DNA of 64,000 nt from Octopus vulgaris (GCA_951406725.2 OX597819.1:48608001-48672000); one strand, 5' to 3'; shown: positions 73 to 60,957, counted from the stretch's first letter. The notes: generated from the sequence alone by a model not told the origin. Translations and numbers: made by a program.

Positions 73-119
73 AGGGTGTCTGAGAGACACCACCATGCCG
101 AAATAACAGTCGAAACCCT
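73..119 (+). ncRNA. Decayed type I hammerhead ribozyme-like motif
   Basis: agggtgtc/gaaaccct stem I (7/8 pairs), shortened core TGAGA, stem II gaca/tgcc, GAAA...GTC; next to a (TA)n tract. Confidence 0.4.
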
Positions 120-669
120 GACTATAAAAACCACATTAAATGTTCGTTATTATATTCACTGCAGTGTTTATTTTAACCATATCGTGCTTATGGGGTGTTT
201 TGGCGGGCAATTTAACTGGCCGTGTGCATACGTACATATGTATGTATGTATGGACGTTCGTATATGTAAGTATATCGTTTGTTCTGCATATATATATCTG
301 TATTTATGTATATATATATATATACACACACATACACTTATGTATATATATATATATATATATATATATACACACATACACTCACACACACACACACACA
401 CACACACACACACACACACACATATATATATGGGTATGTATTTTAGAGATTTTATTGTTTTAGCAAAGAATCTCTGCTTTTGTTAATTTCAACAGTTCTT
501 CAGAAACCAAAAGATTTTGGATACGTAAATGTAAATGCGGCAAAATTATTTTCAAACAGGTTTTTGTTATCCAAGCATTATAAATATGGTGTCAAAGAAA
601 TTAGAGATAGAAAGAACAATCAAAGTCATTACATATCAAGTGTATCTTTTTACTTTTGATGAGTAAATA

Positions 670-1265
670 GTGTGATGTGGGCTCTGAATGCAGAAGACAT
701 GTGAAGGTTAAAGAGGAATGAGGCTAGTATGTTTCACTGGATGTCTTAATGTAAGTGTTCATGTTCGACAGAGTGTTAGTGTATTGAGAGAGAAGTTAGA
801 CATAAGAGGAATTAGATGCTGTGTACAAGAGAGAAGATTACACTGGTTTGGTCATGTGATGTGGATGGATGCCAACAGCTCCATAAAGAATTGCTGGTCT
901 CTCAAAGTAGGTAGAACATGTAGAAGTGGGAGACCCAGGAAGACATGGGACGAAGTACTGAAGAATGATCTCAGGAGAGATGGCAAAGGACTGGGATGCC
1001 TAGCGACTTGCTGTACTCAAGAAGACCTATGATCCACAGCCAAAGTGTTAAGTCTGACCTCACTGGTGGAGAGTTGTCCTACAAAAGTCCTGTGCCGGTG
1101 CCATGTAAAAAGCACTCATGTGGTGTCACATAAACGCACTCAAGAGGTGCCATGTAAAAACATCCAATACACACTGTAAAGTGGCTGGTGTTAGGAAGGG
1201 CATCTGGCTGTAGAAACCATGCCAAATCAGACTGGAGCTTGGTGCAGCTCTGCAGCTTGCCAGCT
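670..1265 (+). mobile_element. RTE-clade LINE 3' fragment (end of RT ORF plus part of 3' UTR)
   Basis: Peptide VHVRQSVSVLREKL..VQERRLHWFGHV..GRPRKTWDEV matches the ORF at 51695-52591; followed by the ttaggaagggcatc tail motif. Confidence 0.85.
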
Positions 1266-2276
1266 CTCACCAATATGGTGTGTGGGGCATTGTTTCCCAT
1301 TCAAACTGCTCCAGCCTTTCGAATGTCATCCTCGCTGTATGTGGCTGAGCATTATCCTGATGGAAGAACACCTTTTGCCTTGAAACCAAAGATGGTCGTT
1401 TTCCTTCTAGCACTGACTTAAGCTGCTCAAGCTACTCACAGTAGATCTCCTTTGTTATCATTTGGTTTGGGTTTAAAAGTTCAAAGTGCACTAAACCATT
1501 CATATCCCACCACACAGATAACAACACCTTACGTAGGTGAAGACCTTCTTTAGCCTGGGGTGCCAGTGTTTCTCCTTTCCCTACTCACTGTCTTCAGCAC
1601 TTGACATTTTCATAGCGAACCCATTTCTTATCACTAGTCACGATTTGGTCCAAACAAAAAGGTTCATTCATGAGATGTTACAGCAAAGAAGTGTACACAT
1701 TCACTCTCTGCATGCAATCAGACTTGGAAAGTTTGTGAGGAACCCATTGACCTAATTTGCTGACTATTTCGATGGCACACAGGAGTCGATGAATGGTTGA
1801 ATGACCAAATCTAAACTTCTCTGCTAGTTTCTCAACAGTTACAATGGGATTTTTTTTCCACCTGGGTTTGCAGGACATCCTCATTGCGCTCTACAGATCT
1901 TCCAGGATGAGGCTCGTCTTCTAGGCTATAGTTTCCAGCTTGGAATTTCCGGAACCGCTGTTGACACTGGTTTACACTTATTGTCCGATCCCCATACACT
2001 GCATTAATATTCCTTACACTTTTCGTTATGTTGTTGCCTTTATTGAAATCATAAAGCAAAATATGCCGAATATGCTCCTTTGTCACTTCCATTATAGCTT
2101 TGAAAAAAATAACTGTTAAAATCGAACTACACTCTTCAAAGCTTGTACTAAGAATAAATACAAGGTAAAATTATTACCTGCTTTTATAGCAAGTTGATGC
2201 AGGTAGTTTATCCCATCCCTCTCCAACTTTTAGTTCATGCAATTGAAAAAACCACATTATTTATGAGATGACTCAG
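1266..2276 (-). mobile_element. Mariner transposon, decayed, 3'-truncated transposase
   Basis: MEVTKEHIRHILLYDF..., WVPHKLS, VWWD, FHQDNAQPH motifs across frameshifts/stops; terminus at 2276 followed by TA. Confidence 0.9.
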
Positions 2277-2747
2277 TATATATATATATATATATATATA
2301 TATATATATATATATATATATATATATATATATATATATATATATATATAGTATATATATAGTAAGTATATTTTCAGTGACCAGTGGTTGTGTGTAACCT
2401 TGTTATGCCAATGACCAATGAGAACCATGTAATTTTCTCTGACTGATTCCGTGTTGTGTCATTTTTGAGTGACTTAACCCAGCTGTGTTTTTGTCTATAT
2501 GGCCAGTTGTTGTTTTTTCATTGTTGTCTGATGTACCCAATCATTTGTTGTCATTTTTCTAATAAACTCAAACACACAGCACCGTAATACAATATAATCC
2601 AACGTTACTTAAAATACATCAAACCCTTATTTATAATTATTATAACCCTTACCAAATATGGTCTTTTCCATACCGATAAATCTACTAGGTGAAATTGATT
2701 AATTTTATTAAATTAATTACATTCCACCCTTTATTGCATATATATAA

Positions 2748-3495
2748 TGTGGCCGTAGCCAGTACCGCATCGAATGGCCTCTGTGCTGTGGGCACGTAAC
2801 AAACACCATCCGATCGTGGCCGTTCGCCAGCCTCATCTGGCACCTATGTCGGTGGCACATAAAAACACCATCCGAAGACCCGGCAAGACTAGTCAGGCCA
2901 TAACCCGTGGCCCTTACCTGGGACGTAGTCAGTCCACCTGTGCTTACCTTCCTTCTTGTGACACTTGTGAAGACCTGTTGAGGCAAGTGAAAATCAAAAC
3001 AAATCAAAATAGATGAACATCAATGGAATTTGTATCTTTGTGGAAAATACCAGTGCCGGTGGCACGTGGCACACAAGAAAACCATCCGAACGTGGCCGTA
3101 GCCAGTACCGCATCGACTGGCCTCCGTGCTGTGGGCACGTAACAAACACCATCCGATCGTGGCCGTTTGCCAGCCTCATCTGGCACCTGTGTCGGTGGCA
3201 CATAAAAACACCATCCGAGCGTGGCCGTCTGCCAGCCTCGTCTGGCACCTGTGTCGGTGGCACATAAAAAAACACCATCCGAGCGTGGCCGTTTGCCAGC
3301 CTCGTCTGGCACCTGTGTCGGTGGCACATAAAATCACCCACTACACTCTCGGAGTGGTTGGCGTTAGGAAGGGCATCCAGCTGTAGAAACACTGCCAGAT
3401 CTGACTGGACTGGTGCAGCTTTCGGGCTCCCCAGACCCCAGTTGAACCGTCCAACCCATGCTAGCATGGAAAGCGGACGTTAAATGATGATGATA
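2748..3495 (+). mobile_element. RTE 3' UTR/tail copy with about 7 internal 60-70 bp units
   Basis: Repeated ggcac(g/a)taaaaacaccatccga units, ttaggaagggcatccagctgtagaaac, (gat)n end. Confidence 0.85.
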
Positions 3496-58934: not shown

Positions 58935-59948
58935 GCTATGGCCAGTGCCCCCTGACTGGCTCCTGTATCAGTGGCACATGAAAAACGCCAACAGATCGTG
59001 GCCGATGCCAGTAACCCCTGAATGGCTCTTGTGCCGGTAGCACATAAAAAGCACCATCCAAATGTGATCGATGCCGGGCCCAGCTGACTGGCTCCCATGT
59101 ATGTATGTATCATCATCATCATCATCCTTTAACATCTGATTTCCATGCTGGTATGGGTTGGACTGTTTGACTGAAGTTTGGAGAGCCAGCGGCTGCACCA
59201 GGCTCCAATCTGATCTGGCAATGTTTCTACAGCTGGATGCCCTTCCTAACAGCAATAACTCCGAGAGTGTTGTGGGTGCTTTTTATGTGCCACCAGCATG
59301 GGAGCCAGTAAGGTGGGCCTGGCATTAATCACATTTGGATGGTGCTTTTTATGTGTCACCAGCACAAGAGCCAGTCATGGGGTATTGGCATCGGCCACAA
59401 TCGATTGCTACTTTTTATGTGCCACTGGCACGGGAGCCAGTTAAGGAGTACTCTCCACAGCTATAATATTGGTTTTACTTGACTCAACAGGTCTTCTGAA
59501 GCATATCATGTCACCCAACACATCAGGTGCATTCTTAACAGGTCCAGACGTGCATGACTGTGATCTCACTTTAGTTGCCAGGTCTTCTCAATCACAGTAT
59601 ATCTCCAAAGGTCCTGGTCTCCCGTCATTGCCTCTGTGAGGCCCAATCTTTGGAGGTCATGCTTCACCACCTCATCTTATGTCTTCCTGGATCTACTTCT
59701 TCCACAGGTTCCTTCTACAGTTAGAGAGTGGCACTTCCTCACCCAGCTGTCTTCATTCATACATAAAACATGACCATACCAGCACAGACACCTCTCTTGC
59801 ACACCACATTTGATGCTTCTTATGCCCAACTTTTCTCTCTGGGCACTTACACTCTGTCACATATGCACACTGCCATTACACATCCAGTGAATCATACTAG
59901 CTTCATTTCTTTCAAGCCTGCGCATGTCCTTGGCCCATATTTCACTGC
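58935..59948. mobile_element. Forward RTE UTR fragment (58935-59100) plus reverse RTE 3' fragment (59110-59948)
   Basis: Unit motifs; minus strand RNEASM and VVKHDL homologous to 51695-52100. Confidence 0.8.
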
Positions 59949-60354
59949 TTTGTGTGTGTGTGTGTGTGTGTGTATATATATATATATATATATATATATA
60001 TATTATTATTATTATTAATATTAATAGTAATTTTTGTTGACTTTTATAGCTTTATAATTTCATGAACTGAACCATGGTTTTAATTATTATTTTTCATCTC
60101 CCTATGTGTTAGTTTTTTAAAACTATTAGCCAAATATGTATAATAACTGTGCTTATTAATATTATTATATACACTGATAAATATTTTGTTTTATTTTGTT
60201 TTGTTTACCTTGCATTATTGTACCAATGAGTATTATATTATACAAGTGCAGCATTATGAAGTTTATGCATAAGTTTTTATATTTTACATTTTTATATTTT
60301 TATATTTATATGTATATGGTAAAATAATTTTTTCACAATTATAACAAATTTAAT

Positions 60355-60464
60355 TCTCTGAAGAGGCCGTGGCGCATCCTTGTTAATACCTCATTTATAC
60401 CTGCCTTTATGGCTTATAGGTTAAATGAGGTATGACTGCCCTTGCTGCCGAAACAGCTGTCAGA
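60355..60464 (+). ncRNA. Type I hammerhead ribozyme, intact core, 85 nt stem II
   Basis: tct-CTGAAGA-ggc...gcc-GAAAC-AGCT-GTC-aga; internal perfect 12 bp helix 60386-60397/60422-60433. Confidence 0.82.
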
Positions 60465-60879
60465 TATGATTTAATTACATATTATATTTGAAATTTTATA
60501 CTTATATCTCTTTGTATATTTACCTTTACTGTATATTTTGTATAATGCCTTTACTGATATGTAATGGTGTAATAAAGTATTGATTGGGTATCATCTGATA
60601 GTTGATGTTTTATTGATTTAAGTATGTTTCTCCATTTTCTAATTTTGTATATATATATATATATATATATATATATATATATATATATATATATATATAT
60701 ATATATATATATATATATATATATATATATATATATATATATATATATATATATATATATATATATATATATATATATATATATATATATATATATATAT
60801 ATATATATATATGTATGTATATATATATATATATGTATATATAAATTAATCAAAATAAAAACATGATGCCAAGGATTCA

Positions 60880-60957
60880 GTGGTACATATGTTTCGGGCC
60901 TTTATTAGACGGATTTATAACAATGCATAATGTATGTCTGTGGCCTTCTTCAGTCGC
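60880..60957 (-). ncRNA. Type I hammerhead motif, stems partly decayed
   Basis: CTGAAGA-aggcc...ggccc-GAAAC-ATAT-GTA. Confidence 0.6.

Follow-up and report, generated by a model that had tools for sequence, protein, structure and literature searches.

The stretch of DNA considered here, 64 kb of the Octopus vulgaris genome (GCA_951406725.2, OX597819.1:48608001-48672000; hereafter the window, with positions counted from its first nucleotide), has 37% GC, is rich in microsatellites, and belongs to an assembly of 2.8 Gb in 227 contigs. A reading made from the sequence alone had proposed about a dozen hammerhead ribozyme motifs of type I in it, at twelve positions, most of them beside (TA)n tracts, and had attributed them to Penelope-like elements (PLEs). 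The hammerheads are real but mostly decayed: three are intact, eight are damaged copies of families with intact members elsewhere, and one, at position 73, is spurious. They appear to mark the 3' ends, or pseudo-long terminal repeats (pLTRs), of ten dispersed repeat families (A to J; Table 1), several of which run upstream into open reading frames (ORFs), or remnants of them, for a reverse transcriptase (RT) and/or a GIY-YIG endonuclease (EN).

Table 1. Hammerhead-bearing copies, PLE coding remnants and related features of the window (loci elsewhere in the genome carry L numbers).
Feature	Position	Strand	Remarks
Family A, 5'-truncated 3' end of a Hydra-clade PLE with the short 3' end, (TA)n on both sides	59971..60647	+	related copies joined to an RT and EN ORF in L035 and L036
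Intact type I hammerhead A: stem I TCT/AGA, 85-nt stem-loop II, palindromic helix III	60355..60464	+	predicted cut after 60461
Family B, truncated PLE 3' end with long tail, (TA)n end	56935..57307	-	
Intact type I hammerhead B: 54-nt stem-loop II	57132..57212	-	predicted cut after 57136
Family C, truncated PLE 3' end, 5' limit approximate	60835..61275	-	hammerhead 60880-60957; stem I broken (site 60953(-)), with two changes relative to 19 other copies
Family D copy	43524..43910	+	hammerhead 43792-43839; core at 43796(+) CCAATGA (family majority CCGATGA)
Family D, second copy	28300..28612	+	hammerhead 28470-28522; core at 28474(+) CCGATGA; G16.2 changed (GTA to ATA)
Family E, inverted 5' piece	21737..21899	-	hammerhead 21772-21856, intact by descriptor
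Family E, forward piece and tail, (TA)n end	21909..22140	+	hammerhead 21933-22017; stem I mismatch (site 21937(+))
Family F, old	34906..35231	+	hammerhead 34942-35180; core at 34948(+) CTGAAGG; split by a 113-bp insert (35035-35147), presumably a short interspersed nuclear element (SINE), with a 13-bp duplication (35022-35034 and 35148-35160)
Family G copy, (TA)n end	50395..50827	-	decayed hammerhead about 50476-50530; changes in helix III and stem I (site 50526(-))
Family H: C-terminal EN-like remnant (about 41352-41540) and pLTR, 3' limit approximate	41345..41880	+	5' half of a minimal hammerhead, 41779-41811; 3' core lost by deletion (site 41783(+))
Family I fragment: inverted 3' piece (62-147) and forward piece	62..310	+	ends before the family hammerhead
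Family J copy	3537..3733	+	hammerhead 3612-3695; GAGA for GAAA (site 3615(+))
Broken Hydra-type linker and GIY-YIG EN remnant (CNC-x4-C-x5-C, VY.C, YIG)	31638..32480	+	linker at 32095; no hammerhead found adjoining
3' half of a hammerhead of a further family	27971..27994	-	absent from the sequence-only reading
Decayed J-related hammerhead region, 73% identity	58244..58370	-	absent from the sequence-only reading

A strict type I descriptor (CTGANGA, GAAA, a self-complementary helix III, stems I and II of at least 3 bp, and up to 120 nt between the core halves) finds three complete hammerheads in the window, with cores at 60358(+), 57208(-) and 21852(-), and none in 40 local dinucleotide shuffles of it. 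A looser one, which accepts a helix II mismatched at its base, U4C in the core, and a helix III of any palindromic sequence, returns the same three and nothing in 15 shuffles, and the motif density thus exceeds that of dinucleotide-shuffled DNA. The core C3UGANGA9 / G12AAA / U16.1 H17, with three helices and an open helix I, is present at these three sites and in copies of all ten families, families D and I departing from the standard with C4 or U3 variants. A CTGANGA belonging to the motif lies near seven of the twelve proposed positions, with 60953 as an eighth, and is wanting at 73, 28470, 34942 and 43792. The eight damaged sites are decayed members of families with intact motifs; the family F hammerhead occurs in uninterrupted form in relatives, and 3612 and 41783 had rightly been called decayed cases. 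Position 73, also called decayed, is rejected as a hammerhead of either type I or type III: it is an antisense look-alike on the other strand of the family I 3' end, its apparent core varies among copies (CTGAGA, CTAAGA or CTAAAA), stem I is absent, and the true family I motif lies in the part missing from the window copy. The description of the motifs as minimal is wrong for most sites, given the 51-85 nt between the core halves in A, B, C, E and J and a similarly long segment in F. Their flanks are indeed unrelated between families, but 28470 and 43792 belong to one family and 21772 and 21933 form one inverted pair. An Rfam gathering search found nothing in the window, nor in ten sampled stretches with descriptor matches that include a canonical hammerhead array; because Rfam misses that array as well, its blank for the window is uninformative. 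An Rfam E-value scan of the window gave only microsatellite-driven matches among the best 150 of 291.

Searched against the genome, each site returned many first-look candidates, which are not copy numbers: 1795 for A, 2021 for B, 1674 for C, 4081 for D, 808 for E, 21 for F, 1802 for G, 948 for H, 1564 for I and 2179 for J. The anatomy described below comes from the best 15-30 loci per family, sets in which the window copy and a few loci that overlap one another are counted. Best-hit identity is 97-99% in A and C, 95-97% in B, 86-94% in D, G and J, 80-87% in E, and 71-83% in F (longer matches). A relaxed check of core, helix III and stem I was passed by 25 of 30 copies of A, 24/25 of B, 15/20 of C, 14/25 of D, 7/20 of E, 3/15 of F, 8/15 of G, 10/15 of I, 7/15 of J, and 1/15 of H, whose loci were found with a deleted query. 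Copies of A, B, C, D, E and G stop at fixed 3' ends and start at scattered 5' positions; many begin with an inverted piece (seen in L035, L036, L093, L230 and at window positions 21737-22140), most families have two alternative, bimodal 3' ends, and a family A copy, L036, carries a partial tandem of pLTR, tail and ORF. The hallmarks of EN-containing PLEs, namely partially tandem pLTRs, 5' truncation, 5' inversion and an optional tail (here 70-170 bp), are therefore all found. Both 3' ends of family A lie upstream of its first ATG (+492).

Proximity to (TA)n, claimed for most sites, holds for nine of the eleven genuine ones, which have a (TA)5 run 30-202 nt downstream (F and H are the exceptions), against a window background of 23% within 200 nt. 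Among the genomic copies, a (TA)5 run occurs within 400 nt downstream in 29/30 for A, 24/25 for B, 20/20 for C, 19/25 for D, 17/20 for E, 12/15 for G and 13/15 for I, or 76-100% in these families, compared with 26% of random positions. Targeting of TA thus holds for seven of the ten families, in keeping with the (TA)n preference of the Hydra clade of PLEs, and is weak for J (9/15) and F (7/15) and absent for H (1/15). The distances from hammerhead to (TA)n cluster, at 184-191 and 357-365 nt in A, 37-49 and 109-144 nt in C, and 66-85 and 216-225 nt in D, and the window copies of A and C sit tail-to-tail within a single (TA)n tract.

Coding sequence lies upstream of these 3' ends. In family A, six of eight long stretches contain long RT and/or EN frames, among them a 681-aa open RT-EN stretch in L035 and an ORF in three pieces in L036, and the motifs include IRWR, HSDKT, GLYRDD, SNHPP and YIG. 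Its CNC-x5-C-x5-C linker (CNCRNRNKCVFGNQC), together with CSLC and CIH, corresponds to the Hydra-clade CxCx5C linker and to CxxC/CxH around the conserved E/N, and IRWR and HSDKT to the clade's RWK motif and its change of DKG to DKT. In family B, related RT/EN frames occur in three of six stretches (L089, L090 and L092), with GLYRDD and YIG and an RT 43% identical to that of A; the CxC linker was not found in the copies examined. A single coding region with RT and C-terminal GIY-YIG upstream of the pLTR is therefore present in A (L035, L036) and B (L089). EN remnants, with no RT, lie upstream and on the same strand in C (L230, 47% to homologues), D (L071), E (L129), G (L152, L159, L164) and J (L181, L182, L192), and no coding link was found for F and I. 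The proposal that the motifs belong to PLE pLTRs is thereby borne out for seven families, as is the accompanying one that PLE ORF remnants lie in the window itself, at 31638-32480 and 41352-41540; the latter, the peptide upstream of family H, which is shared with L203, we take to be a Penelope-type EN C-terminus. A search with the family A RT found 262 longer relatives, nearly all unnamed, the best named one coming from Argonauta hians. With about 2.9 kb of coding sequence and 2.1 kb of 3' untranslated region (UTR), family A measures about 5 kb and is not a short element (<3 kb) of the Hydra type, a size that the published wording qualifies by 'generally' and does not make strict; the UTR of C is about 2.2 kb. 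Asparagine-rich inserts separate RT thumb and EN in L035, L036 and L089, and such inserts are described at the same place in rotifer Penelope elements (PMC3846280).

The topology in excess of the shuffled background, the fixed 3' and variable 5' ends, the 5' inversions, the paired 3' ends, the (TA)n junctions, the ORF linkage and the partial tandem in L036 are all observed directly. On these grounds we assign a probability of roughly 0.88 to the reading that the motifs are type I hammerheads in the pLTRs of ten dispersed families, that in seven of these the pLTR is joined to RT and/or GIY-YIG sequence of the Hydra type of PLE, and that target-primed reverse transcription into (TA)n probably deposited the window copies, which are truncated remnants. 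Judging from the PLE literature, the endonuclease of the element would nick TA-rich DNA, and reverse transcription would begin at either of two internal positions 3' of the hammerhead (+189 or about +360 in A, about +40 or +110 in C, about +70 or +220 in D, and about +83 or +215 in G), which would account for the two alternative 3' ends, as it does in vitro for an anole PLE. The RT would usually stop or invert early and leave short hammerhead-bearing stubs that decay neutrally, most stubs carrying the hammerhead because it sits just upstream of the start sites. The hammerhead is predicted to cut only as two copies paired through the palindromic helix III, or together with the protein of the element, and so to trim tandem transcripts, with the long, stable stem-loop II staying outside the core.

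Several observations weigh against this account, on the side of ancestry as well as of function. Motif by motif, family A matches the Hydra-clade definition and alignment rows of Craig et al. (2021; PMC8557442) by eye, but no single copy of family A that was examined has one unbroken ORF, F and I lack an ORF link, Pfam gave no RT or GIY-YIG match for A, B, three homologues or L022, and the family H peptide has no significant match in Pfam or to the L022 ORF. As for function, only three of the twelve window sites are intact. Stem I sequences differ yet pair across the 33 sequence clusters into which 188 descriptor matches in 975 kb fall, but the descriptor demands this pairing, and only the shuffle control is independent. 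Covariation within families is weak, with 4 compensatory cells in seven families against 62 one-sided and 53 broken ones, in copies picked by similarity. Families with weak cores further weaken any firm claim of catalysis. In the literature, PLE hammerheads show low activity in vitro (PMC4209133), and that of the anole PLE is dispensable for insertion in vitro, with no RNA-seq ends at the cut site (PMC11167929).

The most serious alternative is that the folds are inherited yet catalytically unused, serving as structures for protein binding or RT positioning, which we judge unlikely, though far from negligible. Family D probably spread with a U4C core: the core starts with CC in 19 of 25 copies (CCG in 14, CCA in 4, one with a later change) and with CT in 5, and CTG and CCA are the decay products expected from the CpG of CCG. 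In a viroid, U4C strongly lowers activity in vitro, and yet the variant still supports infectivity (PMC3088659). Family I has C4 or U3 cores, stem I has just 3 bp in A and J, and mutants of the anole hammerhead are without effect on insertion in vitro, although the same hammerhead does cleave in the presence of protein (PMC11167929). Against disuse stands the recurrence of a full core with a palindromic helix III in all 33 otherwise dissimilar clusters. The core has changed less than its flanks in six of seven families, but the copies were chosen by similarity, so this is not used as evidence. The helix III self-duplex is predicted at -7 to -11 kcal/mol in seven of eight families scored (-1.7 for the minimal H), and the palindrome makes cleavage as a dimer plausible. 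Contigs from four runs guessed to be RNA, under two organism codes, cover the family A hammerhead; no accumulation of ends was reported in them, but contigs can show neither ends nor strand and are thus no evidence on expression or cleavage. Substitutions in them at 60443 and 60444 would give the long arm Watson-Crick pairs where the window copy has G-U, which is a hint at most.

The sequence-only reading had offered, as one option, small, non-coding, retrozyme-like modules moved in trans by PLEs, and for the window at large this is improbable. A retrozyme consists of tandem non-coding units of 150-500 bp with a hammerhead, and A to H and J have no such organization: sites in the window stand singly or as inverted pairs and not in tandem arrays, and A, B, C, D, E, G and J run upstream into coding sequence along which their 5' ends are scattered, so that they are mostly truncated ends of coding elements. 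Family I, alone among the ten, looks non-autonomous and partly fits, with a head-to-tail unit of about 480 bp (spacing 481 in L172 and 478 in L173), 5' inversions, (TA)n ends, and no ORF or PLE protein match in 15 loci. At about 1050-1170 of L177, a PLE RT fragment of another type (reading KRYLDDCFIW), which we take to be Neptune-like, directly abuts an inverted piece of family I, in what is possibly a template switch pointing to the partner of this family, or else simple nesting. A true retrozyme does exist elsewhere in the genome, at L210:2097-4768, where a non-LTR (non-long terminal repeat) array of a 359-bp unit carries a canonical type I hammerhead (seven motifs); the 5' inversion of PLE type and the (TA)n at both ends of this array, which is not present in the window, suggest that it was moved by PLE machinery. 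Retrozymes about 82% identical to it lie inside the family C 3' UTR at L230:4365-5433 and L106:880-1171, and share both the short TA-rich position and the 3' junction. The inserts differ from each other, and that in L230 has a duplication of about 12 bp and an inverted partner copy lacking the insert; the two are probably independent insertions. Chance matches in AT-rich, microsatellite-rich DNA, the last alternative, may be set aside for eleven of the twelve sites, since the descriptors find nothing in the window shuffles or in 1 Mb of shuffled sample sequence and the motif occupies the same place in the 3' end of each family, although site 73 is just such a look-alike and one-mismatch descriptors do give 0.1 matches per shuffle.

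The closest published counterparts of these PLE ends are the Hydra-clade elements, characterized by RWK, DKT, a CxCx5C linker, a hammerhead and (TA)n insertion (Craig et al., 2021; PMC8557442). The families here share with them an RWK-like motif, DKT, YRDD, the CxC-x-C-x5-C linker, a C-terminal EN and insertion at (TA)n, as well as a type I hammerhead near the 3' end whose helix III is palindromic and whose helix II has a bulge or mismatch at its base (PMC8557442). The supplement of that study lists Hydra-1_Obim of Octopus bimaculoides, with a hammerhead and a (TA)n preference; its own hammerhead differs, and four co-terminal copies are described, whereas the families here have hundreds to thousands of candidates. 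They differ, too, in stem-loops II of 51-100 nt, where the Hydra rows listed have loops of 3-10 nt, in a helix III that is mostly an even 8-nt palindrome, in the absence of a CxC linker from the family B copies examined, and in the size of family A, Hydra-clade elements being generally <3 kb. With the minimal hammerheads of PLEs (Cervera and de la Peña, 2014; PMC4209133) the likeness extends to the type I topology, the palindromic or absent loop 3, the extra nucleotide after A9, the many families per genome, and the predominance of single motifs from truncated PLEs along with close opposite-strand pairs; family H is the classic minimal motif, and cephalopods were not met in that survey as far as the part drawn on goes. 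Non-LTR retrozymes are likewise short non-coding hammerhead units tied to PLEs (Cervera and de la Peña, 2020, PMC7229834; Li et al., 2026, bioRxiv 10.64898/2026.07.22.740005), which fits family I and L210, but nine of the ten families in the window lack such a tandem non-coding make-up. In Anolis, Poseidon PAc (Frangieh et al., 2024; PMC11167929) also has two internal RT starts that yield a short end plus a tail, an AT-rich target, and a hammerhead upstream of the starts; its tail, on the scale of 30-40 bp, lies inside the ORF, in contrast to the 70-170 bp here and to the family A ends upstream of the first ATG. The basic finding is therefore already in print, for the Hydra clade and for Octopus, and what is added is scale and shape.

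Concerning shape, the segment between the core halves measures 85 nt in A (z -5.6), 54 in B (z -2.6), 51 in C (z -0.8, no more stable than shuffles), 59 in J (z -2.1) and 58 in E, and 21-29 nt in D, G, H and I; representative copies of E and F failed the helix III test and hence have no fold z-score. The hammerhead of the family A copy in L002 folds at -37.4 kcal/mol (z -5.6). More than 40 nt separate the core halves in 20 of the 33 clusters. As to scale, a sample of 20 stretches of 10 kb, placed at round coordinates on the 14 largest contigs only, with the smaller chromosomes outside it, gave 19 descriptor matches in 200 kb against none in five shuffles (1 Mb), ten of the 20 stretches having a match. 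With one seven-copy array and one inverted pair each counted once, these make 12 sites, or 60 per Mb, in agreement with the 3 per 64 kb of the window; in nine of the 12 motifs outside the array, the arm between the core halves exceeds 40 nt (49-100 nt). Extrapolated from this small sample to 2.8 Gb, the genome may hold about 170,000 hammerheads (Poisson 95% about 87,000-290,000). The axolotl genome, for comparison, is much larger. It has 126,247 hammerhead motifs (PMC7229834). In the earlier survey of PLE hammerheads, a helix II of 7-8 bp was large and 4,000-9,000 motifs per genome remarkable (PMC4209133), while the arms here are much longer and the estimate is one to two orders higher.

A tentative extension, which we would sooner bet against than for, is that dozens of PLE families, amplified recently, have given this genome at least 100,000 hammerheads of intact structure, and that in most of these loop 2 is replaced by an arm of 50-100 nt, which standard descriptors and Rfam miss and which would be a clade-specific module for protein binding or RT positioning. 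Such a density would be far above the published counts considered, and, were these hammerheads to cut when transcribed within introns, above all as inverted or neighbouring pairs, they would shape the transcriptome of the host. Craig et al. (2021; PMC8557442) used spacers of 7-17 nt and set cases of 35-50 nt aside as 'half cores'; since three quarters of the non-array motifs here exceed 40 nt, existing counts of PLE hammerheads may fall far short, and long-armed ones may be present in some families that are said to lack a hammerhead. No published report of long arms (49-100 nt), of a family-wide U4C core or of such abundance was found in the literature searched, which covers supplements in part; on PLE hammerheads in octopus it yielded Craig et al. 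(2021) only, with nothing further among the best 25 of 54 records, on long helices II viral 6-bp helices only, on U4C hammerheads Perreault (2011) only, and the main text of a 2026 repeat annotation of Octopus vulgaris contains neither 'ribozyme' nor 'hammerhead' (PMC13282606). The young families A and C (97-99% identical), together with the natural variation of the core (U4C in D, and C4 or U3 in I), provide material on what PLE hammerheads do.

Some loci outside the window are composite. In L084, at about 1920-2170, a family D tail joins a family C 3' end directly, with no TA between, either as a chimera or as a nested insertion. A family J copy occurs three times at a spacing of about 2.85 kb together with its SINE-rich flanks (L182, L184, L185), which is a segmental tandem duplication and not a PLE tandem. 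On both flanks of the family A copy in L003 lies an inverted pair of another hammerhead-like family; its stem I has 6 bp, its helix III is palindromic, and its 5' core appears either shifted or interrupted. Within the window, broken coding pieces of a non-LTR RT (321 and 208 aa), which we assume to be RTE-like, occupy 51695-53287(-), and a peptide at 1832-2170(-) resembles the N-terminus of a mariner transposase. There are many SINE-like repeats with internal tandem units of 60-66 bp (3134-3338, 5016-5164, 5502-5833, 9932-10096 and 45127-45281), presumably of the octopus SINE type, and, beside (TA)n at 33110-33390, a seemingly perfect inverted repeat with arms of about 130 bp.

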